Source: a virus (taxonomy: Duplodnaviria > Heunggongvirae > Uroviricota > Caudoviricetes). From it: a stretch of DNA of 64,000 nt. A program made the translations under genes and the position numbers. Of the stretch, positions 40,600 through 63,099 are shown one piece after another. Position 1 is the first letter of the stretch. Each line of letters opens with the position of its first letter. The notes under the pieces are model-generated. The model did not search any database. It was not told where the DNA came from and worked only from the letters and a program-made list of their open reading frames with translations. Location: positions 49,317 through 113,316 of the IMG/VR virus record IMGVR_UViG_3300038968_000013; one strand, 5' to 3'.

Positions 40600-40798
40600 G
40601 CGTATTGGTACAGAAATAACGTACTACACGATGTGCGATCGATGCTACGCGGTATTCGCGTTGTCCTTGCTGTAGCACTCGTAGCAGCGCACCGGGTACC
40701 CACACCAACGGTGTGTCAGTGTTCCACACCGACAGCATCGTTTACGGCGGTACCCATAGCGACAGTCTTCGCAGGTTGCTGGATTGTGTTTCATAGAG

Positions 40799-40872
40799 CG
40801 GAACCGAGGGGGATCGAACCCCTAACCTTTCCCGTGACAGGGGAGCGTTCTAGCCAATTGAACTACGGCTCC
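40799..40872 (-). tRNA. tRNA-Asp (GTC)
   Basis: Manual fold. Acceptor GGAGCCG/CGGTTCC, D-arm GTTC..GAAC, anticodon loop CTGTCAC and T-arm AGGGG TTCGATC CCCCT. Confidence 0.6.
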
Positions 40873-40877
40873 GTGAG

Positions 40878-40951
40878 AGTCGATACCCGGATTCGAACCG
40901 GGACCGCTAGTTTGGAAGACTAGCATGCTAACCGTTGAACACTACATCGAC
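40878..40951 (-). tRNA. tRNA-Gly (TCC), probable
   Basis: Manual fold. Acceptor GTCGATG/TATCGAC, anticodon stem CTAGT/ACTAG with loop CTTCCAA, and T-arm CCCGG TTCGAAT CCGGG. The D-stem is weak, and the 5' end overlaps the ORF 40928..41182. Confidence 0.45.
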
Positions 40952-42867: not shown

Positions 42868-43223
42868 ACCAACACCCACGCCAGGAAGAAGTAGGTCAGC
42901 GCATGAAGGTACTGATCGAACCCCAGCAAGATCCAGAACCACTCGCTATTGTTCGGCAGTAAGCCGTAATGCGCACCAACGTTCATCTTGGCCCAATCGA
43001 TGTGGTAGTGAGCTACCCCGTCGACCACCATCGACAACATAGCGAGCGTCACGCTATCGCAGCACGAGAGCACAACCCAGAACGTTGCCAGCGCATGCAG
43101 CCCCGCGTGGAGAATTCCGCCAGGGTGACCGTACGTACCCTTATTGGTGTACATGTACGGATGCGCCTGCATCGGAAAGTCCACGATGAAATGCTTCGTG
43201 AATAGCCAGAAGAGTAGCGTCAT
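42864..43223 (-). CDS. polytopic membrane protein, His-rich
   Basis: 119 aa with 3-4 hydrophobic helices. Confidence 0.4.
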   Translation of the reverse strand: MTLLFWLFTKHFIVDFPMQAHPYMYTNKGTYGHPGGILHAGLHALATFWVVLSCCDSVTLAMLSMVVDGVAHYHIDWAKMNVGAHYGLLPNNSEWFWILLGFDQYLHALTYFFLAWVLV

Positions 43224-43954
43224 TAGCCCTCCATCCCCATGTCATACCCCGGATGATCCGGAATCAGGCTACCGAGATATGCTCGGTCCTGCGTGAAAAC
43301 CGGAGGACACCCATTTGTTCCCCAACCATGCGACAGGCACTCGCGCCAATACTGCTGCACACGACCGCGACGAAAGCCTTCCGGATGATTGTTCCAGTTG
43401 TCACCCTTCGCGTGAATCATGTCGTGTAGGTCGGGCGACTTCTTCCCGTGCAGTTCCTTGTGCGAGTAGTAGTGCTGCGCCAGCATCTGCAGGGAATTGC
43501 GTTCCGCATCCTGCTGCCGCCAGATGAAGTAGTTCATGACCTCGGTGCGATCTGGGATCACGAACACGCGCGCATCGAAGACAGCCGCCATGTCGACGCC
43601 CCAGCACCGGTTGAACGCGACCGATGCCGTTGCCGCCGCGATCGAGCACATTTTCTGCAGGTTGCCGTCGAACCACGCGTCGGTCTGAATCGAGTCGAAG
43701 TCCGTCAGGAGTAGCGAGATTTCGTCCGACTGCGTGAAGGCGAATTGGGTACCCTGAATGCTTTTGCAGAGCGCCAACGCGGTGACGTCCATCGCGTTCA
43801 TGAAGCCCTTATCGTATGGCTTCTCCATGTGACGAGTCAGCGTGTGAAACGCTTTCCCGTCGACACGGATGACGGTGTAGGTGCGCCGAGGAAGGGAAAT
43901 GCGGTACCGATCTTCGTACTGCTCCTTCATGCGATCACCTAGCGAGTCAGGCAT
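43223..43954 (-). CDS. tRNA-His guanylyltransferase (Thg1-like protein)
   Basis: YEDRYRISLPRRTYTVIRVDGKAFH, EKPYDKGFMNAMDVTALAL and AFTQSDEISLLL align with the Thg1 family blocks (..VVRLDGRGFH.., ..KPNDERALNLMN.., ..YGYSDEYSFVF). Confidence 0.65.
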   Translation of the reverse strand: MPDSLGDRMKEQYEDRYRISLPRRTYTVIRVDGKAFHTLTRHMEKPYDKGFMNAMDVTALALCKSIQGTQFAFTQSDEISLLLTDFDSIQTDAWFDGNLQKMCSIAAATASVAFNRCWGVDMAAVFDARVFVIPDRTEVMNYFIWRQQDAERNSLQMLAQHYYSHKELHGKKSPDLHDMIHAKGDNWNNHPEGFRRGRVQQYWRECLSHGWGTNGCPPVFTQDRAYLGSLIPDHPGYDMGMEG

Positions 43955-45982: not shown

Positions 45983-46185
45983 AACCCTTACCTCCCTTTA
46001 TTGTACGTTTAGGCTAGAGCGTTTACGGGGAGCCTTGCGCGACACAATGGAGACACGCGACCACTCACTCCCACTCCGATGTTGACATACGAAGTTGGCA
46101 GCTGCCGAGACCGAACGAAACGGACCTACTCGGCTAAACTGCGCTGCCTTTGAAACGACGAACCACTGTCTGTCGAATGTCATTG

Positions 46186-46431
46186 TCAGATAACCCGAAG
46201 GTGTTCGCAGAAAACGTACAGATTGTGCTTCACTGACGGGTGGTCCATCTTCACCGTTGCGCATTTCCCGTCGAGAGCAATCACGGTACCGTACTTCGCG
46301 CCGCGCATCCACAGGTCGCAAGCCGGATGCAACTCGATTCGATTCCCTACAGTAACCGTCTTTCCTTGGTAGTCCGTCATAGTCACCCCTCCAGTGCCCA
46401 AATCCATATCGACCTTCTCGGATTCTGTCAA
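46186..46431 (-). CDS. hypothetical protein
   Basis: 81-aa ORF, the last minus-strand gene before the repeat region. Confidence 0.3.
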   Translation of the reverse strand: MTESEKVDMDLGTGGVTMTDYQGKTVTVGNRIELHPACDLWMRGAKYGTVIALDGKCATVKMDHPSVKHNLYVFCEHLRVI

Positions 46432-46439
46432 GCTTTTTC

Positions 46440-47980
46440 TGGATGGATTTCTGATGATTCGTTATTTGTTCAACTTGGTAGCTAACTTAGGCGACTTGCC
46501 AGAGACGCTACTTTGGGCTGGATCAATTTGAAACTGGGTGGGTTATACATATGCGGGACTTTGGGGAGGAGCTATTCAGGGAAACGTGAAATATTATAGC
46601 GCGGGGGTACACTACAGAATAAGCTAACTCATTGATCCGACTGGGAAAACCAAATTGCCCAATGTTTTCGCGGGGTTAGGGGCTGGACAAGATCCGTGCC
46701 AGCCGATTGGCACGGGACTTGCTAGCGATCGTTGGCATGCGGATTATCCCTGCTAGATCGCGGGGTTACGCGCTTCCCCAAAACATGAGGGGTATCGCGG
46801 ACTTAGGGCACCTAATGAAATCAGGTACTTAGCGCCAATGTCCGATAATGTTCTATTATGTCAACTCGCCACTCCAATTAAATCAGGTACTTAGTTAGGC
46901 TCGCCGAATATTATTAGGTCGCGGGGCCGTTACGCCTAACGCGCTTTTCGGCCAGGTGTGGCATAATCCTTGCTAGAACCGACGCGTAAGGCGTTGGCAT
47001 GATTCTTGCAGGGTCGGGGATCGCTAGGGTGGCCCCCCCCTGTATCATTTCGTTACACCCTGTCTCATTTTAACACATATCGACCCATCCCTTAGTGCGT
47101 CATTATGTCGCACCTACCTTAGGCGAAAGTCGCTTCCTTAACAATTCCGGGCACTTACCCGAGCTGGCACGATTCTCGCGTATCTGATTCTTCTTTACTT
47201 TCGCGCACTTAGGTCTGGTATGGTACTAGTGACATAGGCGAAAGTAGGGCAGATTTTGACGGCGTGCGTCATTTTTCGCTAAACTTTCGCTTTTCTGGAC
47301 CATGCGCTAATCGAGCGGAAACCGGCATAGGCAACGCGTCAAGGTCGGTTGATACATTGGCATGGTCTCAGGGTTGCGCGTGTCCTAGGGCAATTGTGGA
47401 CGTTCTAGACCTACGTTCCGAATGACATAGGTTGTTTCGGTTGCTATCTATTAAGGGCGGTTCCCGGTTCGCCCGGTTGGTTCCCGTTCCCGTGGCCTCG
47501 GCGCGGTTGGCCACGGTTCCCGGTTCGCTCATGGTTCCCGGTTGAATTGGCCACGGGTCGCGGTTGGTTTTCTGGGCTAGACGCGCGCCCGCTAGCGTCT
47601 AATCGGGCGCGAATTTTCCCGGTTGGTAGCGGATTATGCGCTAAGTACCCGGAAACATTAGAAAAGAAAAATTACGATTGACGCATTTTTTTTGTTGACA
47701 ACCGCTTGCGGTTTCCTTAGGATCGGTTCCGTTGATAGCGCAACCCCGCATGACGGCGGTTCGCGGATTCCGTAGGGTGCAAGGTTGTTCGCCGTTTCGC
47801 ACGCGGTTCAACGGAACGTGCGTTAAGGTTCGCGGCGCGCTAATCCGTAGGCTTTGACGTCGGAACGTTGCCCGGTTCCGATACCATGCCACATAGGGCG
47901 GAAACATTGGGAACGCGGTTGACCCTCACTGCTAAACCGCGCGGAATTAACCGCGCCGTTTACCTAGGAGGGTTTCACCA
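46440..47980. repeat. 1.5-kb repeat-dense non-coding region (candidate origin / partition / control region)
   Basis: No credible ORF. Direct repeats TTGGCA(C/T)G..TGCTAG x4 (46700-47030), AAATCAGGTACTTAG x2 (46815, 46882), TAGGCGAAAGT x2, and CGGTTCC/GGTTCCCGGTT x>8 (47460-47900). Palindrome CCGTGCCAGCCGATTGGCACGG (46693-46716). Also contains a C8 tract (47035-42) and T8 tracts. Confidence 0.6.
47695..47723 (+). promoter_or_regulatory. sigma70-like promoter TTGACA-N17-TAGGAT preceded by an A/T-rich UP-like tract
   Basis: TTGACA at 47695-700, 17-nt spacer, TAGGAT at 47718-23. It points into the plus-strand module. Confidence 0.45.
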
Positions 47981-48153
47981 TGGCAAAGGTTGTCGGCAAG
48001 GTTGTTTTGCGTAACGGTAAGGTTGCAACGCACGGCGGTTGCGCGTTGCTGCGTCGTTCCCTTTCCGGTCTCACGGTTCGTGTCATGACGTCGCCGAACA
48101 TTCGGCGCGAAACCGTCATGGCGCACGCGTTGCGGTTGGCGGTTGCCCGGTAG
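47980..48153 (+). CDS. small hypothetical protein (57 aa)
   Basis: AGGAGG RBS 8 nt before the ATG at 47980. Translates MAKVVGKVVLRNGKVATHGGC... and is below the track's length cut-off. Confidence 0.3.
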   Translation: MAKVVGKVVLRNGKVATHGGCALLRRSLSGLTVRVMTSPNIRRETVMAHALRLAVAR

Positions 48154-48264
48154 GTAGCAAGTAGGACGCTCGCGCGGTTCGGAGCGTCTTACATGATATC
48201 AACCGGTCAAGGTTGGTTTCCCGTGTCGCATGGTGCGGCATAGTATCTAGGAAAGGTTCGAACA

Positions 48265-49188
48265 ATGGCGCACGAATTGGAAATGAACAACGGCGAAGCT
48301 TCCATGATCTATTCTGGCGAGCTTCCGTGGCATGGTCTCGGTTTTCGGATTCCGCGAAACGTTCCGTGGGAAATTGGTTTCGTGAAATGCGGCGCCGATT
48401 TTCATGTTCAGCGTGCGAAGCTTCAAACGGAAACCGGTTCGCACGTTCCGGGTCATTTCGCGTTGCAACGCACGGATACCGGGCGCGTGCTTTCCGTGGT
48501 CTCGGATCGGTATTCGGTGATTCAAAACGTGGACGCGTTCCGGTTGTTCGGCGAAGCATTCGGAAGCGCGGCGGTTTTGCATACTGCCGGGGTTTTGCGG
48601 CATGGCGCGGAAGTTTGGGGGTTGGCGGAATTGCCGCCCATGGCCATCGTCTCGCGCGAGATTCATCGTCGTTTTTTGCTGGTCACTACTGGCCACGGTT
48701 CGCGCAAAGCGTTGAAAGTGATTCCGACCGCAACGCGCGTCGTTTGCGCGAATACTCTCGCGGTTGCGCTCGGCGGTTCCACGGATGGAATTACCATCCG
48801 GCATTCCGGCGACGTCAACGCGAAGCTTGCCGCCGCTGGCGAAGCGTTGAACGCGGCATATGCCGAATTCAACGCCTATGCCGAAACGGCGGAACGGTTG
48901 GCAAATAAGACGTTGACCAATGGCGAGCGAACCGAATTGCTCGAAACGGTTTTCGGCGACAATTCGGAAGCGATCGACCGTTGCAAATTCCTTGCGGTTC
49001 ACGGCAAGGGTCAACGCGGTTCTGATATCGTCGGGAGCGCATACGCGTTGCTGGCGGGAATCACGGATTACGTAGACCACGAAACCCGTGCGGCGCGTTC
49101 CCGGAACGTCAACCGTCGTTTCGCGGTTGCGACGCTTGGCGCGGGCGCGCGCGTCAAGTCAAAAGCGTTGCAATTGCTCGCGGCGTAG
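48265..49188 (+). CDS. DUF932-like phage/plasmid protein
   Basis: 307 aa. N-terminal MAHELEMNNGEASMIYSGELPWHGLG is typical of the DUF932 family found in ICEs and phages. Confidence 0.5.
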   Translation: MAHELEMNNGEASMIYSGELPWHGLGFRIPRNVPWEIGFVKCGADFHVQRAKLQTETGSHVPGHFALQRTDTGRVLSVVSDRYSVIQNVDAFRLFGEAFGSAAVLHTAGVLRHGAEVWGLAELPPMAIVSREIHRRFLLVTTGHGSRKALKVIPTATRVVCANTLAVALGGSTDGITIRHSGDVNAKLAAAGEALNAAYAEFNAYAETAERLANKTLTNGERTELLETVFGDNSEAIDRCKFLAVHGKGQRGSDIVGSAYALLAGITDYVDHETRAARSRNVNRRFAVATLGAGARVKSKALQLLAA

Positions 49189-49191
49189 TTT

Positions 49192-49266
49192 GAACGCTAG
49201 ACGCGTGCGCTCGCATAGGCGCGCGTCTAGACGTTTGCACTAACGCGAACGGGAAAGGTTTAGACG
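49192..49266 (+). repeat. conserved intergenic cassette, copy b (GC-rich imperfect palindrome + GTTTGC-ACTAAC-GCGAAC hairpin + GGGAAAGG RBS)
   Basis: Shares about 60 bp with copies c and d. It ends 6 nt before the ATG at 49267. Confidence 0.6.
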
Positions 49267-49662
49267 ATGATTCAACGCATGTCGGAACCGGAATTGTTGG
49301 AACGGGCGGCAACCGCCGCACGGTTGGCAATGCGGGCGCGAACCGGAAACGGTTTCGCCTATTTTTTTCGCATGGCGGTTGAAACCGACCGCGAATTACA
49401 GGAACGCGCCGCAACGCGGGCGGTTGTTTCGGCAATGCTCGCAAGCGTTCCGGAAAACAACGCGCGCGCGCTGGCAACGCTCGCGGCATTCGGGCGCGCG
49501 TTCACCATGACGGCGGCAACCGAGACCAACGGCGACAACGGAAGCGACAACGGCGACGGCGGGTCAAAGGTTCGGCGACGAAAACCGCGACCGCAACCGC
49601 CATCGGGAACGCTCGCGGAATTGTTCGCGGCGAAGCTTGCGACCGCGAACGGGAAAGGTTGA
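49267..49662 (+). CDS. hypothetical protein
   Basis: 131-aa, Ala-rich ORF preceded by cassette b. Confidence 0.4.
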   Translation: MIQRMSEPELLERAATAARLAMRARTGNGFAYFFRMAVETDRELQERAATRAVVSAMLASVPENNARALATLAAFGRAFTMTAATETNGDNGSDNGDGGSKVRRRKPRPQPPSGTLAELFAAKLATANGKG

Positions 49663-49665
49663 CCA

Positions 49666-49890
49666 ATGAGCTATACCCTCACGAAACGGCAATTGACAAC
49701 GCTTCGCGCGGGGTTGACCCGCGCTATTGGTTCGGGCGATGCGGCGAAAGTAGCAAAGCAGGTTCGCGGCGCCCGCGTTGTTTTCGACTCGTTCGGCTAT
49801 CCCGATTGTTGGTCAAATTGGCAACGCGCATGGGACGATTTCTGCGCGAATGATGTTCGCTTTTTCGGCGAACCTAACCCGATGCATTAA
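49666..49890 (+). CDS. hypothetical protein
   Basis: 74 aa. Its GCGAACGGGAAAGGTT RBS module is embedded in the 3' coding end of the previous gene. Confidence 0.4.
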   Translation: MSYTLTKRQLTTLRAGLTRAIGSGDAAKVAKQVRGARVVFDSFGYPDCWSNWQRAWDDFCANDVRFFGEPNPMH

Positions 49891-49974
49891 ACGTGAAACC
49901 GCTAGACGTTGCGGAATCCGCGTTTATTGCGTGGTATGCCGCATGGGTTGTCGGCAACCTGCTTTTCTAGTGTC

Positions 49975-50056
49975 AACGTCGGGCGCGTGCGCTAGTCTCG
50001 GCGCGCGTCCTATCGTTTGCACTAAACGCAAACGGGAAAGCGAGACCGAAACGAAT
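49975..50056 (+). repeat. conserved intergenic cassette, copy c (hairpin GTTTGC-ACTAAAC-GCAAAC)
   Basis: Same architecture as cassette b. It precedes the ATG at 50057. Confidence 0.6.
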
Positions 50057-50797
50057 ATGGGAAAACTTTTGACCCTTGGAAGCTGCAACGCAAAAACCGT
50101 GAAAGGCGAAGCATTCGGGGTTTTGACCGGGATTCTTCACCTTGCGCCGGAACGCGCCAGCGGTTTCAATGTTTGCGCCTATGCGGGCGCGTGCGTCGCG
50201 CCATGTCTTAACACTAGCGGGCGCGGTCGACCCGAAACCCCGCTAGGTGAACGGATACAATCGGCGCGGTTGCGTAAGACGGCGCGGTTTTTTTCCGACC
50301 GCGCCGAATTCATGCGAGACCTTGTGCGCGACGTTGCGGCGGTTGAACGCAAAGCGAAACGGCGCGGCATGGTTCCGGCAATTCGGTTAAACGGAACGTC
50401 GGATATTCCATGGGAACGCGTAGCGGTTGGCGCGGCGCCGAATATCATGGCGTTGTTTCCTGACGTGCAATTTTACGATTACACGAAATACCCGGTAGCG
50501 CGGCGGTTGCTGCTTCCGCCGAATTACCATTTGACGCAATCGCTGGACGTTGGCCACAATTCGGAACGCGAAGCGTTGACCGCGCTTTCCATCGGGCGAA
50601 ACGTGGCGGTTGTTTTTCCCGTGGCGCGTTCCGGACCTTTACCCGAAACGTTTACGCTAGGCGCGTCAACGTTCCCGGTAATCAACGGCGACGCTTCCGA
50701 CCTTCGATTTACTGACCCGGTTGGCGTTATCGTGGGGTTGCGTGAGAAAGGTCGGGCGAAGCATGACGCAAGCGGATTCGTGCGGGCGGTTGCCTAA
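50057..50797 (+). CDS. conserved phage hypothetical protein
   Basis: Start MGKLLTLGSCNAKT inside the track ORF 49778..50797 and preceded by cassette c. 247 aa. Confidence 0.45.
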   Translation: MGKLLTLGSCNAKTVKGEAFGVLTGILHLAPERASGFNVCAYAGACVAPCLNTSGRGRPETPLGERIQSARLRKTARFFSDRAEFMRDLVRDVAAVERKAKRRGMVPAIRLNGTSDIPWERVAVGAAPNIMALFPDVQFYDYTKYPVARRLLLPPNYHLTQSLDVGHNSEREALTALSIGRNVAVVFPVARSGPLPETFTLGASTFPVINGDASDLRFTDPVGVIVGLREKGRAKHDASGFVRAVA

Positions 50798-50877
50798 ATG
50801 ACCGACGCAATGCGCGTTGTCTGGAATTGCGTTAAACTTGCCGTTGCGTTGTATCTGCTAGGACGGTTGACCCGGTA

Positions 50878-50955
50878 GCGTAAACGCTAGGCGCGTGCGC
50901 TGGTCTCGGCGTGCGTCTAGACGTTTCCACTAACGGAAACGGGAAAGGTTGCACG
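50878..50955 (+). repeat. conserved intergenic cassette, copy d (hairpin GTTTCC-ACTAAC-GGAAAC, compensatory change)
   Basis: The stem changes G-C to C-G at the same pair relative to copies b and c. It precedes the ATG at 50956. Confidence 0.6.
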
Positions 50956-51207
50956 ATGAATGTTCCTGAGATTGTTTGCGGCAATTGCGACCAATGGAAA
51001 CACGCAACGGGAAACGACGCGGCGCCGTTTGATTGCGTCAACCGTTGCACGGAACGCAAACTAGATCCGGTCTCGCGTTGCCGAACATGCGAGACGAAAC
51101 TTGACGCGCGTGCGCATGTGGACATGCGTTCCGACAATCGCGGCGCCTATTGCTCGCGCGTATGTTTGAACGGCGCGACGAAACTACAGGAAAGGTCGGG
51201 ATACTGA
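50956..51207 (+). CDS. Cys-rich zinc-finger-like small protein
   Basis: MNVPEIVCGNCDQW...CVNRC...CRTCE...CSRVC. Confidence 0.4.
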   Translation: MNVPEIVCGNCDQWKHATGNDAAPFDCVNRCTERKLDPVSRCRTCETKLDARAHVDMRSDNRGAYCSRVCLNGATKLQERSGY

Positions 51208-51210
51208 ACC

Positions 51211-51456
51211 ATGGAAATTTTCTATTCTGACGGTGGACACGGCGGACCTTACCCTAGCGTCTATGCCGCAGAATGCGCCGCTCGCGTCTATGTGAAACGG
51301 AACGCGCGTCTAGGTCGCAAAGTCTCGGTTCAAGTAAGACGGTCGACCACGGAAACGGAACCGGTTTCCACGGTTGACGTCAAAACGTGCATTGTGACGG
51401 CGGCAATTGACGGCGACGTCGAGACCGTGCGCAAATTGCTCATGGTGCTTTCATGA
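51211..51456 (+). CDS. hypothetical protein
   Basis: 81-aa ORF. Confidence 0.35.
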   Translation: MEIFYSDGGHGGPYPSVYAAECAARVYVKRNARLGRKVSVQVRRSTTETEPVSTVDVKTCIVTAAIDGDVETVRKLLMVLS

Positions 51457-51722
51457 GTCGACCACGGGTCAAACAATGGGAACGGTTGCCGTCATGGGAA
51501 CGCATGCCGGGTCAACCGAGACCGGAACCGGAAACGGAACCGCCGCTATGCTTCGCGTGCGGCGCGGCGTACGTTGACGCGGTTGGCGTTGCGTGCGGCG
51601 GTTGCGTGGACGATTGCGTTGCGTGTCGATACTGCCGAACCGCATACGCGTTGAGCAACCGCGACGATTGCGCCGAATGCGCGTTGACGGCGGCAATGTC
51701 GCGGCATGAATCCGAACGATAG
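51453..51722 (+). CDS. Cys-rich small protein
   Basis: 89 aa with multiple CxxC pairs. Confidence 0.35.
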   Translation: MSRPRVKQWERLPSWERMPGQPRPEPETEPPLCFACGAAYVDAVGVACGGCVDDCVACRYCRTAYALSNRDDCAECALTAAMSRHESER

Positions 51723-51749
51723 ACCACGGGCGGAACGCTTTGACCCTAA

Positions 51750-51780
51750 CCGGGCGAAGCGTTCCGCCCGGTTTTTTTTT
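51750..51780 (+). terminator. rho-independent terminator
   Basis: CCGGGCG(51750-56) AAGCGTTC CGCCCGG(51765-71), a perfect 7-bp stem, followed by T9. Confidence 0.65.
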
Positions 51781-52277
51781 GCCTACCAACCGCCAACCGC
51801 TAACCGCGCCAACCGCGAAACCCTACCTAGAACGCGCCACGTTGACCGTAGACGCGCGCGCGCCCTATCCCCTACCCTATCCCCTACCCTCGCCGTTGCG
51901 TTGCTCTAATCGAATCCTAGGACGTCGCCTAATAAATCGCGGGTCGCCGCGACCACGCACCTTTCGTGCCAACCTGATTCCCATTATTAAGAATGGGAAT
52001 GTAAATGTAACAATGACAATGTAATTCTTACATGTAGGAATGTAAGTTTTACAACGGGGGGTCGCGCAGGGAGGCAGCGCGGCGCAATAGCCCAAAAATC
52101 GCTTCGAACCGCTGGGAAAAATGACCTCTTTGGACCAACCGCCTAACCCTGTAAACAAACTCAACTTTTCGCAATTTTCGTTTTGAAAGTTTTCGTTTTG
52201 AAATTTCTTCACGAAAAATTTGCGGAATCGTGATATAATTATTGCGAATAATTGAGAGAGGGGGGGGGTGTTTTGAG

Positions 52278-54582: not shown

Positions 54583-54711
54583 TTACTGTCCTCCCATCCC
54601 TACGATGATGTACTTGAAGTAAGCCGCGCCCGAGATAAACCCGAGCGCGACTCCCACACCCACCGCCACCCCAAACACCACCGACCGAAAAAACGTCTTT
54701 ACGTTGTCCAT
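54583..54711 (-). CDS. small membrane peptide
   Basis: MDNVKTFFRSVVFGVAVGVGVALGFISGAAYFKYIIVGMGG. The start overlaps the SPFH gene stop codon. Confidence 0.3.
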   Translation of the reverse strand: MDNVKTFFRSVVFGVAVGVGVALGFISGAAYFKYIIVGMGGQ

Positions 54712-55796
54712 TACTGTGCCTGCTTCAAGTCGACCATGGGCATCGCGGGACCGGAGACGAGGGAGAGTTTTCCATCCCACTTCCGAATACGTTCCCACTC
54801 GACCAGTGTCGGCGTGATTGACTTGGCGAGGATTTCGTTTGCTTGTGCCTCGGCCTTGGCGCGGATCAGCTGTGCATCGGCTTGTCCTTGAGCGAGCGCC
54901 TTAGCCTGGTCACCCTCGGCTTGCTTGGCGCGCACCATGTTCTCGGCTTGGATTGCAGCCTGTGTCGCGGCGATAGCCTGGTTGACTGCCTGCATGACCT
55001 TATCGTCGACCCGCAGTCCCGAGACGAAGGCGAACGATTCCACCTTGATACCGTCCGGTGCCATACGAGTCTGCAGCTCCTTGAGCACGTTGGCCTCTAG
55101 CTCGCGGCGCCCTTCTCCGAGAATGAGCATCGTGTCCATCGTCTGGCCATAGTGGGCCACGATGTCACGAATCTGAGAGCGCATGTATGTGTGTGTGATG
55201 CGTCCGATGTCCTGGCGGAACTTCACGAAGAGCTGCGGAATCTTCTCCGGTTCCAGCGAGTAGGCCAGGAAGACGTCGGCGTTCACGAGGCTCGACTGCT
55301 TCGAGTTGAACGTGATGCTCTCGTCGCCGGGGGACTCTGGGGTATCGTCCTTGGTGAATACCTGCTGCTGCAGGAAGATCGGGAACAGATGAATCTCGGT
55401 CTTGAAGGGGTTGTACACCTGAATGCCAGTAACGGCAGTCGCGTTAGCAACGCCCTTATCTGAGCCCCAGAGGTTCACCTTGACGCCTACGTAGCCAGGC
55501 GGCACCCGTGTATATCCACAGCCGCTACCTGTCAGCAGAAACGCGGACAGCGCCAGCGGCAGCAGCACGGCGGGGAACGATACCTTACCCACGTTCTCGG
55601 TGAGCCAGGCGAATCCCATGTAGAGTAGCGTCGCGGCCAGCATGAAATCGGCCAGACACACGAGCAGCCCAAAGATAGCGAGGAACGTGCTCTTCGCGGA
55701 CCACATTTCGATCCCGAGCGTCCACACCCCCACGACCACGAGTAGCGCGCAGATGACGCTACCTACGACTTGAACGAGAAACCGCAATCCACTCAT
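54711..55796 (-). CDS. SPFH/band-7 (flotillin/HflK-like) membrane protein
   Basis: N-terminal TM helices followed by an SPFH-like core, then an Ala/Gln-rich coiled-coil tail (AQAENMVRAKQAEGDQAKALAQGQADAQLIRAKAEAQA). Confidence 0.65.
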   Translation of the reverse strand: MSGLRFLVQVVGSVICALLVVVGVWTLGIEMWSAKSTFLAIFGLLVCLADFMLAATLLYMGFAWLTENVGKVSFPAVLLPLALSAFLLTGSGCGYTRVPPGYVGVKVNLWGSDKGVANATAVTGIQVYNPFKTEIHLFPIFLQQQVFTKDDTPESPGDESITFNSKQSSLVNADVFLAYSLEPEKIPQLFVKFRQDIGRITHTYMRSQIRDIVAHYGQTMDTMLILGEGRRELEANVLKELQTRMAPDGIKVESFAFVSGLRVDDKVMQAVNQAIAATQAAIQAENMVRAKQAEGDQAKALAQGQADAQLIRAKAEAQANEILAKSITPTLVEWERIRKWDGKLSLVSGPAMPMVDLKQAQ

Positions 55797-55822: not shown

Positions 55823-57544
55823 TTACTTAGCCTGCATTCGATACCGCAACTCCGACTCGTGCTGACTTCTCAGCGCGGTAAGGACTTGCGCAGAGTCGAT
55901 TGGAGTGTATAGCTCCCGAACCATGGCGACTCTTTCGTCCCAGCTGCGACTACGAAACGCCTCTGGCTTTTCGTACCATTCTTCGGGCACGTCGAAATCG
56001 CTAGCATTCGCGAGTACCGTATCGATAGTGTTTTTGATTGAACGTCCGGTGAAGTGTTCACTTTGCTTCCTGAAATCCTCGCACTCCATCCCGAGGTCGA
56101 GCCACGTATCCGCCATGTCAAAAGCGGGAGCCTTGTGCTTCGTCTGCGCCCTACGTGGACGGGACAGTGGCTCGTATCTCGTTGATGGAATCTTGACGAT
56201 ACCCTGTTTGGTGGCTTTGCGCAAGAGGAGCGCGATCAGATCCGCGTAATCCTCTGGCGTCTCCGGTCCCATGACTGGAAAGCGCGCGACGAATCGCTGA
56301 CGGAGAGCCGCGTCGGTGGCGGTCGGAGCATTCGTGGCTGCAATTGTGATGTATGAGCCCGAATAGGCTGAACCGACACCAGAGAAGAAATCCATCAGCC
56401 CCTTGAGAATGTCACGATCGCCGCCACCCATGCCGGGAGAGGAACGATCGCCACCCGCGAAGAGCAGATCCACGTCGTCGAGACACATGATCGAGAGACG
56501 ACCCGGATCTCTCAGGTCGTTCAGTAGATCATTTAGAAGCGTAGCTGTTTTGCCATACCATTCCGACTTCACGTCCGATGCACCCAGCGACTTGAAGTAG
56601 GTTGGCATACCGATTTGGTCAGCGCGACGCTGTAGCAGCGTCATCGCCATCCTCATGATACTGCTTTTACCAGTGCCCGGAGGTCCGTCCAGGAGGATGC
56701 TTTCGAGAATACCCCCCATTTCACAAAATGGATTCTTCCCGAGCTGTGGGTCGTAGCACGCGAGACGATCCATTTGCCGCCTGAGCTGTAGTACCGCAGC
56801 GTCGTTGCCGACGATCTCTTCCGGTTGAACCGGGACAAAGGAAACACTTGTAGCATCTTTTGCTTTCTCTACCGTTGTTCCCGTGATGGTGAACTTCTGG
56901 TATCGGAAGGTGACTTGATCGAGAGACGATCCGAGTGTCTTATGAGCACGGGCTTTAATCCGAGCTTGTTCAGCAACCCAGCTCCAGTAGTCGCGAGAAA
57001 TACTAAGCTCGTCGCCAACGATATGGACGATAGGATTGCCGTGCTGATCTTTTGCTTGAATGGCATCGATGTACCGTGCAAGGCAAAGCCCGAGGTCGCC
57101 GTCGATAGATCCACGGATATCTAGCTTCAGGATGCTTGTGTCGAGAGTTGCGAATTGACCTTCCCGACGTCGCAGCAGGCGAGCCGCTTCCACTTGAATG
57201 AAGCTCGCTGCTACGAACGTCGAGTAGGCAGAAATGAATGCTGCGCGTTCTTGAATCTCCGGAGAGATAACGCCACCGCGTGCTTGAAGCTCTTTGGCAG
57301 CCTCGCGCTGCCCGGTGCGTTCCATCAGATGGTCCACGAACCAGTAGTAGAAGCACACGGCTTGCCGAATGAGGAAAACGAGAGCCATTTCCTCAGGCAG
57401 GACTCGCCAGGTCTCTTGTGGCGAGAGGTCTTTCAGAATGTCTTCGAGGTCGCGTTCACCGTCGATCTTGGAGAGCGCCCGTTCGGCGGTCGCAATCCAC
57501 TTATCGAGGTCTTCAGCCTTGATGGGGAGGGCTTCGCGTTCCAT
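55823..57544 (-). CDS. AAA+ ATPase (classic-clade AAA domain) with ~330-aa N-terminal domain of unknown function
   Basis: Walker A LLDGPPGTGKSS, Walker B IMCLDDVDLL and sensor/Arg-finger region IAATNAPTATDAALRQRF. Confidence 0.7.
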   Translation of the reverse strand: MEREALPIKAEDLDKWIATAERALSKIDGERDLEDILKDLSPQETWRVLPEEMALVFLIRQAVCFYYWFVDHLMERTGQREAAKELQARGGVISPEIQERAAFISAYSTFVAASFIQVEAARLLRRREGQFATLDTSILKLDIRGSIDGDLGLCLARYIDAIQAKDQHGNPIVHIVGDELSISRDYWSWVAEQARIKARAHKTLGSSLDQVTFRYQKFTITGTTVEKAKDATSVSFVPVQPEEIVGNDAAVLQLRRQMDRLACYDPQLGKNPFCEMGGILESILLDGPPGTGKSSIMRMAMTLLQRRADQIGMPTYFKSLGASDVKSEWYGKTATLLNDLLNDLRDPGRLSIMCLDDVDLLFAGGDRSSPGMGGGDRDILKGLMDFFSGVGSAYSGSYITIAATNAPTATDAALRQRFVARFPVMGPETPEDYADLIALLLRKATKQGIVKIPSTRYEPLSRPRRAQTKHKAPAFDMADTWLDLGMECEDFRKQSEHFTGRSIKNTIDTVLANASDFDVPEEWYEKPEAFRSRSWDERVAMVRELYTPIDSAQVLTALRSQHESELRYRMQAK

Positions 57545-58799: not shown

Positions 58800-58925
58800 A
58801 ACATGTTGTTTGTGACCATCTTTTTACCGGTGCTCTAACACTGAGCTACTTCCACATGTGGAAGGCTGGACTTTAACCAGCGACCCCCGGTCCTTCATGA
58901 GAACAGTCAACAGTCGGCTCGCAAG
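58800..58925 (-). ncRNA. Y RNA-like permuted tRNA mimic, E1
   Basis: Reading 5' to 3' on the minus strand, in order: leader GCGAGCCGAC, anticodon-stem 3' strand ACCGG, variable loop GGGTC, T-arm GCTGG TTAAAGT CCAGC, acceptor 3' strand CTTCCAC-A, a 1-nt link, acceptor 5' strand GTGGAAG, TA, D-arm GCTC AGTGTTA GAGC, A, and anticodon-stem 5' strand CCGGT. The 7-bp acceptor and 5-bp anticodon stems are perfectly complementary between the two halves. Confidence 0.5.
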
Positions 58926-59109
58926 CCGTTAACATTGGTCCCGATGCCGTGGACACAACCCCCGGCTCTCCCGCACCAACGCGGTTGTTCTGTGTACATG
59001 TCGGGCTACACCGAATCGTGCTGCCCCGGCCGGGTCAACAGCAGAGATTCATCTGGCAGACATTTAACCAACACGGTCTAGTTTCTGAACTACATCGGGA
59101 AAAGAAAAA

Positions 59110-59246
59110 GCGAGCATGTAGCTTCTTTGAGGAGTGTATTTTTGACGGTTGCTCTACCAACTGAGCTACATTCTTGGTTGCCCTTGAATGGCTGGATTCG
59201 AACCAGCGACCCACTGTGTGTGATAACCCTCAAACGTTCGGCTCGC
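59110..59246 (-). ncRNA. Y RNA-like permuted tRNA mimic, E2
   Basis: Same order as E1. T-arm GCTGG TTCGAAT CCAGC, acceptor halves CATTCAA / AAGAATG (5 of 7 bp) joined by a GGGCAACC loop, and D-arm GCTC AGTTGGTA GAGC. Leader GCGAGC pairs with trailer GCTCGC. Confidence 0.5.
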
Positions 59247-59328
59247 GAAAAATGACCCCGAAGTCATGCTAATTATGCATGAATACTCAGCCTCGATGAG
59301 CATCGGGGAGAGAAGCTGTTTCAAAAAG

Positions 59329-59411
59329 TACCGGTGACAGGATTCGAACCTGCAAGAGTTTCCCCTACTAGTTCCTAAGACTAGCGTGTACGCCAATGCC
59401 ACCTCACCGGC
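59329..59411 (-). tRNA. tRNA-Leu (TAG), class II
   Basis: Manual fold. Acceptor GCCGGTG/CACCGGT, anticodon arm CTAGT CTTAGGA ACTAG, a 13-nt variable arm and T-arm GCAGG TTCGAAT CCTGT. Collinear with E. coli tRNA-Leu. Confidence 0.6.
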
Positions 59412-59421
59412 AAAAAGAAAG

Positions 59422-59531
59422 TGGGTAGGGGTGGAGTTGAACCACCAAGTAAGCTCTCAAGTAGGCATACTCAACTAGTATTTTCAGCCCACCATCCAGC
59501 TATTCTCTGTACAACAAATGTACACCTACCC
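59422..59531 (-). ncRNA. 110-nt tRNA-like RNA (perfect 7-bp acceptor + T-arm, ~35-nt extra internal sequence)
   Basis: 5' GGGTAGG ... GGTGG TTCAACT CCACC CCTACCC A 3'. The D-arm is a 4-6 bp palindrome (G)TGTACA..TGTACA. No canonical anticodon arm could be placed by hand. Confidence 0.35.
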
Positions 59532-59595
59532 ATAGTCTCGGACAACGGATTGCGGTCTCACTGTACCGCGCTTAATCCCCGAGCTTAAAACGGTT

Positions 59596-59650
59596 GGGGC
59601 CAGGCTGGATTCGAACCAGCAGAGAGGGATGGCAAATCCCCCACGAACTG
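59596..59650 (-). ncRNA. tRNA-like 3' module (anticodon-like hairpin GGGGA TTTGCCA TCCCT + T-arm GCTGG TTCGAAT CCAGC + CTGGCCC)
   Basis: No matching 5' acceptor strand either upstream or downstream. It shares a GCTGGCAAAA submotif with E4. Confidence 0.3.
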
Positions 59651-60100
59651 AGCGGATCAAAGCGTGCAAGCTTTTGCCAGCTCAGCGACACTACCCGGTC
59701 TAGACTTCCTCAGCCCGCCGCCATTGCCAACCATGCGACTTACTGACCCCAGAAAACTAACCACGAACATAAAAGTGAAGAGCGAGCTGTCAGCTGGGTA
59801 CCCTTGATCTACTCGTACCGCCCCATTGATGCGAAGGCTTATCAGCTTCGTAGAGGGTATCACCCCAGGTGACTTGTCATCCATCTTACACCCCGGATGC
59901 ATAGGTGTGCTGCCTTCATCGGTGGACCTGACCTTTTCACTACTCAGTTAAACGTTGTTTCGAGGGCGCCTTGTCCGGTCTCCCCCTGGCTTTTTTATCA
60001 AAGTAGAGAACACTCTTCGATTGGCTCGTGGTTCTTGTCCCAGCAATCCTACCCCTCAGTGTGCTAATGAGTCTCAGATCTCAGCCGGGACCAAAACTAT

Positions 60101-60235
60101 ATACCCTGAACGTATGGGCGTCGATGCGGTTTAACGCTCTGCCATTGAGCTAACTCTGCAGGTTAGTGCAGAGCCTGGGACTCGAACCCAGATCTTTCGA
60201 TTATCATTCGAGAACACACCAACAGTCGGCTCAGG
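60101..60235 (-). ncRNA. Y RNA-like permuted tRNA mimic, E3
   Basis: Leader GTTTCACCCTGAGCCGACTGTTG..., T-arm CTGGG TTCGAGT CCCAG, acceptor 3' strand GCTCTGC-A, loop CTAACCT, acceptor 5' strand GCAGAGT, TA, D-arm GCTC AATGGCA GAGC. Head ACCCTGA pairs with tail TCAGGGT. Confidence 0.45.
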
Positions 60236-60284
60236 GTGAAACTTAGATTGTCAAAGAACAAGGTGGAGAACGAGTTACAGAAAG

Positions 60285-60365
60285 CAGGGATTAGTGGGAT
60301 TTGAACCCACATCAGCCGGTTTTTGCCAGCTTCGTCATCCAGTAGCGATAACCCTGCCTAGTTCG
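60285..60365 (-). ncRNA. tRNA-like module E4 (shared leader + T-arm GTGGG TTCAAAT CCCAC)
   Basis: Leader GAGAGCCGAAC matches those of E1-E3. The tRNA-like features are incomplete. Confidence 0.3.
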
Positions 60366-60380
60366 GCTCTCCGGATCTTT

Positions 60381-61043
60381 TTACAGCGCCACTTCGCGTG
60401 GCGTGTGAACTGACGGCATCGTAGCACCGATGGATGGCTTTGTCAAATCCTGATGCTTTGCCATCCAATCCTGCACGAACCAGAGCTGTCCACAGCCGCC
60501 GCCGATGTCGTCCTGTCCCGCAGGATCGAAGCAGCGCACCGAGTACCCGATCGTCTTCATCATGTCCATGAAGTTGGTCGCGAGGGTCCGCTGACGATGA
60601 TTCGCCGCAGCCACGCTCTCGTCCCGCTCACAGATGACGCTGATCGTTGCTTCCCACGTATCCGGGTGAAACAAGCGGCGCAGGTTGTTGACGTCCTGCC
60701 ACGATACGTTACCCGGATGCGCGCAGTAGTTGAAGAACGGGCGGCGCCCGGTGACGTTGTAGAAGCGATTGCCTTGGTACGCGATCTGCGCGAGGTTCAG
60801 CTTTGCCTTGAACGGAATGAGCTGATCGCGCTTCTCGTCGGTGCTCTCATGAACCGAGAATTGCAGCCCGATGGTAGGAATCTTCCGCGCCGCTTCCATG
60901 ATCGGGTCGTAATCGACGTCCGGAGCACTCGTGGAAATGAGCAGCGAGAAGTTCGGGTAGAGGAAGTACAGGTACTCCATCGCCCTGATCAGTTCCTTTT
61001 GGTTGAGCATTTGTTTACACCAATTGTAAGTAAGATAACCCAC
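60381..61043 (-). CDS. hypothetical protein downstream of rsr
   Basis: 220-aa ORF. No motif recognised. Confidence 0.4.
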   Translation of the reverse strand: MGYLTYNWCKQMLNQKELIRAMEYLYFLYPNFSLLISTSAPDVDYDPIMEAARKIPTIGLQFSVHESTDEKRDQLIPFKAKLNLAQIAYQGNRFYNVTGRRPFFNYCAHPGNVSWQDVNNLRRLFHPDTWEATISVICERDESVAAANHRQRTLATNFMDMMKTIGYSVRCFDPAGQDDIGGGCGQLWFVQDWMAKHQDLTKPSIGATMPSVHTPREVAL

Positions 61044-61160
61044 TACCCGGTCGGCTCACCGTATGCCGTTATGTCTGAGACGCGAACATGTAGACGCCTA
61101 GGGCTGTTTTCATTTAGGCAATGGTAACCCTAGAGCTATCGGCTCGCGCGTATCTTGTCG

Positions 61161-62777: not shown

Positions 62778-62927
62778 CCCCTCACATTCGGTTATCGGCT
62801 CACACGGTAGGTTTTAAGACACCACTTACCCGGCCCAGCCACGCTTGCGCTTTCGATTCGGCCCGTGTGCTCAGGAAACAGAGCTTATGCTATCCTGATG
62901 GTTGTGTCAAGCGGTCGCGCAGATTTT

Positions 62928-63098
62928 TTAGCAGTCGTCTTCTTCGAGAGCAGCGGCCCACGCGTCTTCGAGGTCGTAGGTGTCGAAAATTTCACCGCAG
63001 TTGTTGCATTCGAACTCGTAGACTTCACCGTCGATGTCGTCTTCCAGATAGTCCGACTCGACGTCTCTCGATCCACATTCGATACACCGCACCGCCAT
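62928..63098 (-). CDS. small acidic zinc-ribbon protein (56 aa)
   Basis: MAVRCIECGS...CNNCGEIF... has two CxxC pairs. It is below the track's length cut-off. Confidence 0.4.
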   Translation of the reverse strand: MAVRCIECGSRDVESDYLEDDIDGEVYEFECNNCGEIFDTYDLEDAWAAALEEDDC

Positions 63099-63099
63099 G

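Follow-up and report, generated by a model that had tools for sequence, protein, structure and literature searches.

Within the window, that is, the whole 64-kb stretch of DNA from an uncultured phage analysed here, leftward accessory genes on one side and a rightward DUF932-GP88 module on the other are separated by a gene-free stretch of ~1.6 kb (window 46,381–47,979), which lies between two divergent start codons, at 46,380 on the minus strand and at 47,980 on the plus strand. On its flanks lie small unknown ORFs and the gene of a DUF932 protein. The longest ORF in the gene-free stretch does not exceed 88 aa, none of its nine small ORFs matches a Pfam or PHROG family, and independent gene calls on the same phage also left it empty, in agreement with the initial annotation, which had described it as gene-free.

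Three phage lineages were compared: the window phage, a sister phage (L021) and a relative at 50% protein identity (L023), hereafter the 50% relative, whose DNA is no longer alignable to the region by BLAST. No lineage beyond these three was found among isolate phages (searched by DNA and protein), in IMG/VR (by protein and pattern), in metagenome and genome collections (by the conserved-block pattern) or in genomes searched with the terminase. A more distant DUF932/GP88 phage (L102) was set aside as uninformative, since its sigma-54-like matches are located within a signal-peptide ORF and ahead of a tRNA. The non-coding DNA is 75–97% identical to that of the sister phage, where the ORFs on either side are replaced or absent. 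The alignment with the sister phage shows indels of 1, 2, 11, 24 and 33 nt, which exclude a reading frame, and no conserved peptide was found between the gene-free stretch and the 50% relative. The possibility that the region is coding in relatives, or is a pseudogene here, was thus rejected on three grounds, namely the lack of family matches, the lack of a conserved peptide and the frame-breaking indels; these point to functional non-coding DNA. The comparison with related genomes, which had been proposed as a check, found the region conserved across the three lineages; the gene-free stretch is conserved non-coding DNA and the most conserved element of the locus. The elements recognised in it are the following, from left to right:

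46,403–46,431, minus strand: leftward sigma-70-like promoter, TTGACA, 17 nt, TATGGA, ~20 nt upstream of the first leftward gene (ATG at 46,380)
46,585–46,664, no strand assigned: conserved upstream block, GAAATATTATAGCGCG, 45 nt, ACCAAATTGCCCAATG; candidate enhancer (UAS) for P1
46,625–46,637, minus strand: IHF-like site with one mismatch, inside the upstream block
46,686–46,701, minus strand: P1', leftward sigma-54-like site TGGCACGGATCTTGTC; its -12 element is GT, not GC; overlaps the palindrome
46,694–46,715, no strand assigned: palindrome CCGTGCCA-GCCGAT-TGGCACGG, two back-to-back -24 elements
46,708–46,723, plus strand: P1, sigma-54-type promoter TGGCACGGGACTTGCT, 11/11 consensus positions; predicted start at ~46,735
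46,819–46,831, plus strand: IHF consensus site 1, AATCAGGTACTTA, with the A/T tract TAATGAA before it
46,840–46,865, no strand assigned: conserved box GTCCGATAATGTTCTATTATGTCAAC, lying between IHF sites 1 and 2 and unchanged in the sister phage
46,881–46,893, plus strand: IHF consensus site 2, AATCAGGTACTTA, with AATTAA before it, within the direct repeat D12
46,935–46,945, no strand assigned: conserved box CCTAACGCGCT, in all three phage lineages and in the same order
46,959–46,974, plus strand: P2, sigma-54-type promoter TGGCATAATCCTTGCT, 10/11 consensus positions
46,995–47,010, plus strand: P3, sigma-54-type promoter TGGCATGATTCTTGCA, 36 nt after P2, 10/11 consensus positions
47,033–47,040, no strand assigned: C8 homopolymer, variable
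47,061–47,078, no strand assigned: conserved box TGTCTCATTTTAACACAT
47,165–47,180, plus strand: P4, sigma-54-like promoter TGGCACGATTCTCGCG, -12 element TCGCG, 9/11 consensus positions
47,189–47,276, plus strand: long hairpin (arms 47,189–47,204 and 47,238–47,253) followed by a small hairpin and T5 (47,257–47,276)
47,451–47,569, plus strand: iteron-like cluster, GGTTCCCGGTT in three exact copies (47,459–47,543) and about three degenerate ones, in 18–22-nt units
47,686–47,723, plus strand: T8 tract, then rightward sigma-70-like promoter TTGACA-17-TAGGAT (47,695–47,723, 10/12 positions)

The repetitive character of the region, which had first drawn attention to it, is real. We counted 44 repeated 9-mers against 6.7 ± 3.4 expected, and none of 500 dinucleotide-preserving shuffles reached 44. 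Yet the coding module next door (48.2–51 kb) holds 98 and is denser than the gene-free region, so that repeat density alone does not single the latter out. The strong palindrome is likewise present, and its arms are kept in the sister phage, where the spacer GCCGAT has become GCTGGT. Both homopolymer tracts exist as described: another assembly of this phage reads C7 where the C8 tract stands, the sister phage lacks that tract, and the T8 tract (47,686–47,693) is not conserved in the sister phage. Iteron-like direct repeats were found as well, and the cluster at 47,451–47,569 has the three or more direct repeats of ~17–22 bp that are expected of an iteron-type origin. The sister phage is without 33 + 24 nt of this cluster, with a different copy number, and no counterpart of the cluster was found in the 50% relative, though the rest of the architecture is kept there. 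An enrichment in CGGTT was considered as a specific protein-binding signal and set aside, because it runs along both strands from 47.3 to 52.2 kb, extends into coding DNA in every frame, accompanies a general CpG-rich composition and is absent in the 50% relative.

The dominant signal, which the initial annotation had missed, is a different one, of the sigma-54 type and accompanied by IHF sites. The pattern TGGCAY-N5-TTGCW has three exact matches in the 64 kb on both strands (0.19 ± 0.49 expected; 0 of 100 shuffles reach three), and all three lie on the plus strand at 46,708–47,010, within 303 bp. The GG and GC of TGGCAC-N5-TTGCW stand exactly 10 nt apart, as a promoter of this type demands. 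In the syntenic gene-free region of the sister phage the motif occurs at three sites, and that of the 50% relative also has three sigma-54 sites, two of them identical copies 28 nt apart. P1 is kept in the sister phage as TGGCACGGAACGTGCT, and its positional homologue in the 50% relative is a tandem pair (L023 6,290 and 6,318); P4 is identical in the sister phage (L021 3,768). P2 and its flanks are almost the same as the tandem sites in the 50% relative. Conservation at the same location therefore holds for P1, P4 and the tandem pair, whereas in the sister phage P2 is weakened (TGGCATAGATACTGCT) and P3 is lost. The leftward P1' is kept in the sister phage (L021 3,298, minus strand), and sites like it (CTGGCAC-N5-TTGTCC/TTGAC) are present in the 50% relative. 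A second gene-free region of the window carries one sigma-54 site, at 51,971 on the minus strand, which is deleted in the sister phage.

Between and around these sites lie others that resemble binding sites of IHF. The IHF core WATCARNNNNTTR, with an A/T-rich tract upstream, is found at both putative sites. The sister phage retains the consensus positions with an altered N4 spacer (AATCAAGGGGTTA), changed alike in both copies; the tetramer is GTAC here, GGGG or CGGG in the sister phage, and takes eight different forms in the 50% relative. A consensus that is kept while its N4 varies among relatives is what would be expected of IHF. Matches to WATCARNNNNTTR fall inside the gene-free region in 2 of 3 cases in the window, 3 of 3 in the sister phage and 8 of 8 in the 50% relative. 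In the whole window they are not enriched (3 against 2.3 expected), so the case for IHF rests on position and on the relatives. The upstream block shares 93–97% identity with its counterpart in the sister phage, and the 50% relative retains both of its end motifs and the exact 45-nt spacing. No dyad typical of known activators was recognised within 46,585–46,664; the block is in the right position and kept in the three lineages, and we infer that an activator may bind it. In the 50% relative the order is the conserved block, three IHF sites and the tandem promoter pair, an order that corresponds to the textbook enhancer-IHF-promoter layout.

The conserved boxes follow the same pattern. The box GTCCGATAATGTTCTATTATGTCAAC appears in the 50% relative as GTCCGATAACCGTTATTATGTCAAC with the order unchanged, and the counterpart of TGTCTCATTTTAACACAT in that phage contains a TTGACA scored as a -35 element of the sigma-70 type. 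At the left edge, the TTGACA...TATGGATTTGG element is found in the sister phage and in the 50% relative as well; it had been missed by a consensus scan because its -10 hexamer matches in only 3/6 positions. The rightward sigma-70-like promoter has the form TTGACA-17-TACTAT in the sister phage. The hairpin and terminator (47,188–47,282) have a fold energy of -28.5 kcal/mol (z = -2.5), with stems that are invariant against the sister phage and changes confined to the apical loop. The unit at 47,189–47,276 is a candidate for a short transcript of ~85 nt from P4, or for a protein-bound inverted repeat.

By sequence, the region is bordered at both edges by outward sigma-70-like promoters, with four rightward and one leftward sigma-54 matches between them, two canonical IHF sites, boxes ordered alike across three lineages and an iteron cluster. 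We consider it, on balance, probable that the region is an enhancer-type, sigma-54/IHF-dependent transcription-control hub between the divergent modules. Host RNA polymerase bearing sigma-54 would form a closed complex on the -24/-12 sites, IHF would bend the DNA, and an AAA+ enhancer-binding activator, encoded either by the host or in a stretch of the phage genome outside our view, would bind the conserved upstream block and switch on rightward transcription. The product could be short non-coding RNAs, such as the 85-nt hairpin-plus-terminator unit after P4, or read-through into the rightward module. With either output, the rightward module would be expressed in response to a signal rather than by constitutive sigma-70 initiation alone. 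Several observations speak against the hub. Both P4 and P1' deviate at the -12 element, and site spacings of 25–36 nt are too short for two polymerases side by side. The rightward sites have no ORF directly downstream, and the nearest rightward gene is 0.8–1.3 kb off, with its own sigma-70-like promoter. Moreover, no enhancer-binding protein (Sigma54_activat domain, GAFTGA motif) was found in the 64-kb window and 10 kb beyond it. Of the earlier interpretation, functional non-coding DNA, repeats and iterons stand; its proposal of an origin or partition site, which failed in most of the tests applied, is not supported, as set out below.

It is worth asking whether this arrangement is peculiar to one genome. 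In IMG/VR, at least 120 contigs, which belong to at least 72 sequence clusters, carry two TGGCAYG-N4-TTGCW sites separated by 2–30 nt, against 5 for a control pattern with the wrong spacing; more than 100 uncultured viral contigs against 5 suggests a general phenomenon rather than a curiosity of a single genome. Among the matches listed, the arrays consist of 2–8 tandem -24/-12 sites in phages with a G+C content from 31 to 64%, many of them with a site spacing of 25–29 nt. The unconstrained flanks of the 432 array sites among these matches reproduce the sigma-54 consensus (T/C before TGG, a purine after TGGCAYG). The gene upstream of the array is on the opposite strand in ~65% of the listed cases, according to crude ORF calls, as expected for promoters at divergent junctions. 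No universal upstream motif was found around the listed arrays, nor an enhancer-binding protein in the ~1 Mb that flanks them. Isolate phages with such arrays were not found, no relatives were found for three array-bearing contigs, and the 112-kb isolate Pseudomonas phage phiK7B1, of similar G+C, has no such cluster. Clusters of sigma-54 promoters in phage genomes were not described in the literature that we searched; some Salmonella phages need rpoN and himA, a requirement that was attributed to indirect effects. Perhaps, arrays of sigma-54 sites, often with IHF sites, at divergent junctions are a widespread and so far undescribed phage control device, a reading that we find possible rather than probable. 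Phage transcription programmes are usually described through host sigma-70, phage sigma factors or phage RNA polymerases. Sigma-54 stays promoter-bound yet silent until it is remodelled by a signal-sensing ATPase activator. An array could thereby place a module under the gate of an ATP-driven activator, either a stress-sensing enhancer-binding protein of the host or an unrecognised phage activator; alternatively, it could serve to capture host sigma-54. If the device is indeed widespread, the region in the window would be one elaborate member of the class. Should phages carry genuine sigma-54/IHF promoters, some of their genes would be expressed according to host physiology or stress, or under the control of phage activators of a new class. 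For the window itself, what was labelled a repeat-dense spacer is better described as the most conserved element of its locus.

The same sites may also bind their proteins without productive transcription, either building a compact nucleoprotein structure or titrating sigma-54. Such DNA could insulate the divergent operons from each other, serve as a cis-acting DNA-entry site like the iss of T5, or form a sink that blunts host sigma-54 stress responses. The stable closed complexes of sigma-54 holoenzyme, and the ability of sigma-54 to bind promoter DNA by itself, would suit a decoy, as would spacings (25–36 nt here, 25–29 nt in many listed IMG/VR arrays) that are too tight for simultaneous polymerases, a search for an activator gene that found none in the window and 10 kb beyond or in the ~1 Mb around listed arrays, the lack of a directly downstream ORF, and IHF sites both upstream and downstream of the conserved promoter pair. 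Still, the sites are strongly biased to the rightward strand, which a pure sink does not need, and the ~65% of opposite-strand upstream genes in the listed arrays (crude ORF calls) fit promoters; we regard architectural or decoy DNA as rather unlikely. The likeness to T5 deserves a closer look, for in the injection-stop (iss) region of that phage, Repeat Region 3, the order of elements is conserved among relatives and the neighbouring ORFs are poorly conserved (Davison, bioRxiv 10.1101/866236). Like it, our region is a large untranslated stretch, conserved over more than 1 kb, in which ordered repeats and palindromes are better conserved than the varying flanking ORFs. However, the T5 region is defined by eight paired DnaA boxes, set in inverted repeats, none of which is found here, and it stands at the terminal-repeat boundary; T5 has no reported sigma-54 motifs, and the terminase shows the window phage to be unrelated to T5 and T5-like phages. 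A further alternative takes non-coding RNA genes as the real payload, for example protein-sponge RNAs rich in UAGG/CGGUU and made by any form of polymerase. TTAGG occurs 8 times against 0.38 expected, TAGG 18 times on the plus strand against 6 on the minus strand, and in their second gene-free region all three phages have a TAGG-type motif preferentially on the minus strand. One hairpin-plus-terminator unit, with its invariant stems, folds better than shuffles, and sRNAs driven by sigma-54/IHF are known in bacteria as GlmY/GlmZ (PMC3045617). Against this, the fold z-scores of the other four putative transcripts are -0.85, +0.34, -1.63 and +0.88, a single compensatory pair was seen, a permissive Rfam search of the region gave two chance-level matches only (E 0.73 and 4.1), and the elements kept across lineages resemble protein-binding DNA boxes. 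Of the ncRNAs that had been suggested, structured ones are thus not supported beyond that one hairpin and terminator, and we hold an RNA payload to be quite improbable.

The origin or partition site that had been thought plausible would be built on the iteron cluster at 47,451–47,569, with the lower-G+C stretch and the IHF sites as accessories. The region does share features with the iteron origins and IHF-centred centromeres of lambda ori, R6K gamma ori, P1 oriR and parS. IHF assists several iteron origins as well as P1 parS. Here too, three exact and about three degenerate copies of GGTTCCCGGTT form 18–22-nt units whose copy number differs between the sister phages, G+C drops to 41% at 47,600–47,699, the lowest value nearby, and IHF sites lie within a few hundred bp. 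Of the two statistics that the initial annotation had wished to see, the repeat count is high without being specific to the region, and the cumulative GC skew indeed has its minimum at ~46 kb, although this coincides with the switch in gene orientation and so is not independent evidence of an origin. Known origins and centromeres differ in other respects. The region has neither a DnaA box (TTATCCACA, up to one mismatch) nor a strong A+T-rich element, its flanking genes include no initiator, and the iterons are missing from the 50% relative, in which the other elements of the region are kept. The window yielded no gene for Rep, ParA or ParB; the ParB-like genes said to lie elsewhere in it could not be confirmed by Pfam scans of ~110 window ORFs, which returned no ParB domain. 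Just beyond the window, ~24 kb away, lie genes for an initiator-like HTH_36 protein, a 171-aa protein and a DnaB helicase, and TGTTCACA repeats stand just upstream of these HTH_36/DnaB replication genes. This locus, with its own repeats, is a better origin candidate, and we judge an origin or partition site in the gene-free region to be unlikely. A cos or pac site, or a genome terminus, had also been suggested. Lambda-type cos regions contain IHF sites, and the sister phage has a contig end that is shared, to the base, by three independent assemblies. That shared end is, however, ~3 kb to the left of its gene-free region and thus outside it, and contigs of the window phage pass through the region unbroken in several samples. 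The large terminase (25,969–27,441) and portal (23,660–25,957) genes are 19 kb away, which makes cos or pac unlikely by position, and we rate packaging as highly improbable.

The hub that we favour has its closest parallels in the sigma-54/IHF enhancer promoters of bacteria, such as Pu of the TOL plasmid, nifH, pspA and glmY/glmZ. The -24 GG and -12 GC with exact consensus and spacing, the canonical IHF sites with an upstream A/T tract, the conserved block 55–150 nt upstream and, in the 50% relative, the placement of IHF between block and promoters are all shared with them. With glmY/glmZ (PMC3045617) the region would have in common a non-coding RNA as its putative product. In contrast to the bacterial promoters, the sites lie in a phage genome as four to five clustered tandem sites, 25–36 nt or a few hundred nt apart, some of them evolutionarily labile, with no activator gene found and no gene directly downstream. 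The arrangement is well known in bacteria, and our literature search met with no account of it in phages. Among lytic phages, tandem early promoters, for example A1/A2/A3 of T7, are alike in that several promoters of the same orientation head a non-structural module at a divergent junction; those are sigma-70 promoters that fire without an activator, whereas the sites described here match sigma-54, which needs an ATPase activator to start.

The stretch between the leftward accessory genes and the rightward DUF932-GP88 module (window 46,381–47,979) is rather probably a conserved sigma-54/IHF-type control hub, a function that we infer from its sequence only. That it is gene-free was confirmed: the longest ORF between the divergent starts at 46,380 (−) and 47,980 (+) reaches at most 88 aa, gene callers also left the region empty, and 0 of its nine small ORFs matched Pfam or PHROGs. 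The palindrome and homopolymers reported in the initial annotation are present (CCGTGCCA-N6-TGGCACGG at 46,694–46,715; C8 at 47,033–47,040; T8 at 47,686–47,693), and repeats are indeed over-represented, with 44 repeated 9-mers vs 6.7 ± 3.4 in 500 dinucleotide-preserving shuffles, although the coding module to the right (48.2–51 kb) has a higher repeat density still. All homopolymers of at least 7 in the window fall within 47.0–52.3 kb, which points to an odd composition of that whole 5-kb segment. The oligonucleotide composition of window 47,300–52,200 (~5 kb, including coding DNA) is unusual: CGGTT is found 6–17 times per kb on its plus strand, is raised on the minus strand too and averages ~1.2 per kb elsewhere, with GCGCG and CGGCG likewise enriched. 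Within the DUF932 gene CGGTT falls in each of the three codon phases, and the same composition is found in a sister phage, not in a distant relative.

These two further lineages were reached through homologues of the adjacent DUF932 protein, to which the sister phage (loci L020–L022) shows 92% identity and the distant relative (loci L023–L025) 50%. In both, the same divergent junction holds 1.36–1.46 kb of gene-free DNA. Compared with the sister phage, non-coding positions 46,380–47,740 show 75–97% identity and indels of 1, 2, 11, 24 and 33 nt, so that a reading frame, and with it a coding or pseudogene origin, is excluded. The ORFs directly flanking the conserved DNA are not themselves conserved; the last leftward ORF (46,020–46,380) is replaced in the sister phage, and the first rightward 57-aa ORF with its 250-nt leader (47,740–48,153) is absent from it. 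The region is thus not coding in relatives and its repeats exceed chance, the two points on which the initial annotation could have failed. The distant relative gave no BLAST alignment of the region's DNA and no shared peptide; it keeps collinear short boxes, namely the leftward promoter, GAAATATWATARCGCG, ACCAAWTTGCCCAAYG, TTATTATGTCAAC, CCTAACGCGCT and TGTSTCATTTTRACAC, with ACCAAWTTGCCCAAYG again exactly 45 nt after GAAATATWATARCGCG.

In a scan of the 64 kb for TGGCAC-N5-TTGCW that covered both strands, the top three matches fell together on the plus strand within 303 bp (3 matches vs 0.19 ± 0.49 expected; at least 3 in 0 of 100 shuffles). The elements of the region are as follows.

46,708, plus strand: P1, sigma-54-type site, full match, TGGCACGGGACTTGCT
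46,959, plus strand: P2, sigma-54-type site
46,995, plus strand: P3, sigma-54-type site
47,165, plus strand: P4, fourth sigma-54-type site
after P4: 20-bp hairpin, then a small hairpin and T5 (fold z = −2.5)
47,451–47,569: iteron cluster, three exact copies of GGTTCCCGGTT
47,695–47,723, plus strand: sigma-70-like promoter TTGACA-17-TAGGAT (TTGACA-17-TACTAT in the sister phage)
directly before the first leftward gene, minus strand: sigma-70-like promoter TTGACA-17-TATGGA, conserved in all three lineages

The palindrome corresponds to two back-to-back putative −24 elements, its other arm yielding a leftward sigma-54-like site, TGGCACGGATCTTGTC. In the sister phage P1 and P4 are kept, P2 is weakened and P3 is missing. 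At the position homologous to P1, the distant relative carries two copies of TGGCATGATCCTTGCT spaced at 28 nt, and a third sigma-54-type site lies 220 nt upstream of its first rightward gene. The stems of the hairpin after P4 are invariant, changes being confined to the apical loop; this unit may represent a short RNA (~85 nt) or else an inverted repeat to which a protein binds.

The 19-nt direct repeat noted in the initial annotation, AAATCAGGTACTTAG, is present in two copies, matches the IHF core WATCARNNNNTTR perfectly and is preceded by an A/T tract. Over the whole window IHF-core matches are at chance level (3 vs 2.3 expected), two of the three lying inside the gene-free region; all 3 matches of the sister phage and all 8 of the distant relative fall inside the homologous region. 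The consensus positions are kept and the four free positions vary between sites and between phages, a pattern that is predicted for indirect read-out by IHF. Neither an RNA helix nor a regulator that reads specific bases would be expected to leave such a pattern. In the distant relative the conserved block is followed by three IHF sites and then by the tandem promoter pair, an order that matches the classical geometry of bacterial enhancer-IHF-promoter systems.

Built on these motifs, their statistics and their conservation, the proposed mechanism would have sigma-54 holoenzyme occupying the −24/−12 sites, IHF bending the DNA and an AAA+ activator on the conserved block triggering rightward transcription, which would end as short non-coding RNAs or enter the DUF932-GP88 module. 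The host would be Proteobacteria-like, judging solely from this apparent use of IHF and sigma-54. No activator gene was found within the 74 kb examined (the window and 10 kb beyond). Also against a control hub, no gene lies directly downstream of the sigma-54-type sites, and part of these sites are evolutionarily labile. A serious rival, if a clearly less probable one, is a role without transcription, in which the region would form a nucleoprotein structure or act as a sink for sigma-54; the spacings between sites are too short for two polymerases, and the closest phage analogue of such a conserved "repeat jungle", the iss region of phage T5, is believed to function as a DNA element rather than a gene (bioRxiv 10.1101/866236).

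The origin or partition site that the initial annotation thought plausible would have to rest on the iteron cluster, and this we regard as unlikely. The cluster is 57 nt shorter in the sister phage and without counterpart in the distant relative, the region has neither DnaA boxes nor an adjoining initiator, and the ParB-like genes said to lie elsewhere in the window were not borne out, no ParB-like domain being found in it. GC skew does have a minimum at ~46 kb, but this is also where gene orientation switches. Following the genome 10 kb past the window's right end revealed a replication module at ~72–74 kb window-equivalent (L235, the locus covering this extension, 1–1,870: HTH_36-type protein of 248 aa, 171-aa protein and DnaB helicase) with four TGTTCACA/TGTGAACA repeats directly upstream, which makes it the better origin candidate. 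Structured ncRNA genes, also raised earlier, are still harder to credit, since Rfam gave no match and fold z-scores are near zero, the hairpin after P4 apart. Least probable is a cos or pac site, with the terminase 19 kb away and contigs reading continuously through the region.

Prompted by the 28-nt spacing of the distant relative's pair, we searched IMG/VR for two TGGCAYG-N4-TTGCW sites 2–30 nt apart and found tandem arrays in at least 120 contigs (loci L105–L224; e.g. L109, L152, L160 and L164), vs 5 contigs when N7 replaced N4 as a wrong-spacing control. The 120 loci listed form 72 megablast clusters with a G+C of 31–64%; among them, arrays hold 2–8 sites at preferred spacings of 25–29, 35–38 and 41–47 nt, and IHF matches nearby are 2.4-fold enriched. 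The unconstrained flanks of these putative promoters (among the matches listed, 71% T before TGG and a purine after TGGCAYG) reproduce the published sigma-54 consensus. In L152, six tandem sites (7,080–7,292) lie in the gap between divergent genes, in front of small ORFs, with a terminase gene ~1.3 kb upstream. Only scattered chance matches were seen in a Pseudomonas phage of 112 kb with similar G+C, and no GAFTGA or enhancer-binding protein is encoded in ~1 Mb of array flanks. Our literature search turned up sigma-54-type regulators encoded by phages and reports of indirect effects of rpoN on infection, and no account of clustered sigma-54 promoters in a phage genome. The putative hub of the window may be one member of a widespread class of such arrays.

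The rightward module is closed by another non-coding stretch.

51,457–52,277: second gene-free region
51,731–51,780: strong terminator
51,971, minus strand: sigma-54-like site, preceded by four AATGTAA/TTACATT repeats

Further features of this region are a TAGG- and G-rich segment with two copies of GGGTAGGGGATAGGG, a tandem repeat of 15 nt, the homopolymers T9 and G9, and a TATAAT promoter ahead of the gene that follows. In the sister phage the sigma-54 site is deleted and the TTACATT repeats and the TAGG-rich segment are kept; at the equivalent place the distant relative carries five CGTACAAC repeats together with two further sigma-54-type sites on the minus strand.

The window belongs to the genome of an uncultured tailed phage, for which no close isolate was found and near-identical copies exist in several metagenomes, on contigs of at most 113 kb. 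In the sister phage, position 1 of L020, L021 and L022 (three assemblies from three sequencing runs) is the identical base, at about window 42,100 equivalent and about 3 kb left of its gene-free region; this shared end may mark a genome terminus, the boundary of a terminal repeat or a point at which strains vary. The window encodes three tRNAs, a Thg1-like enzyme, a Ro60 homologue, a Band_7 protein and an AAA ATPase, and an RNA-quality-control module occupies the minus strand at 58,806–63,738.

20,695–22,020, minus strand: major capsid protein
23,660–25,957, minus strand: portal-MuF, one 765-aa ORF with a Mu F-like head-morphogenesis domain, apparently a fusion
25,969–27,441, minus strand: large terminase
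43,223–43,954 and 40,798–40,951, minus strand: Thg1-like tRNA-His guanylyltransferase and, near it, tRNA-Asp and tRNA-Gly
55,823–57,544 and 54,711–55,796, minus strand: 573-aa classical AAA ATPase (PF00004, not of sigma-54 activator type) adjoining a Band_7/SPFH protein and an NT5C-like nucleotidase
60,115–60,214, 59,123–59,234 and 58,806–58,901, minus strand: three sub-threshold YrlA (Y RNA-like) matches of the RNA-quality-control module (26–40 bits vs a gathering score of 69)
59,328–59,411, minus strand: tRNA-Leu
61,161–62,777, minus strand: Ro60/TROVE, same module
63,100–63,738, minus strand: metallophosphoesterase, same module
L235 1,873–3,030: seven more tRNAs including tRNA-His, clustered just past the window's right end

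The arrangement of AAA ATPase, Band_7/SPFH protein and NT5C-like nucleotidase is kept in all three lineages.
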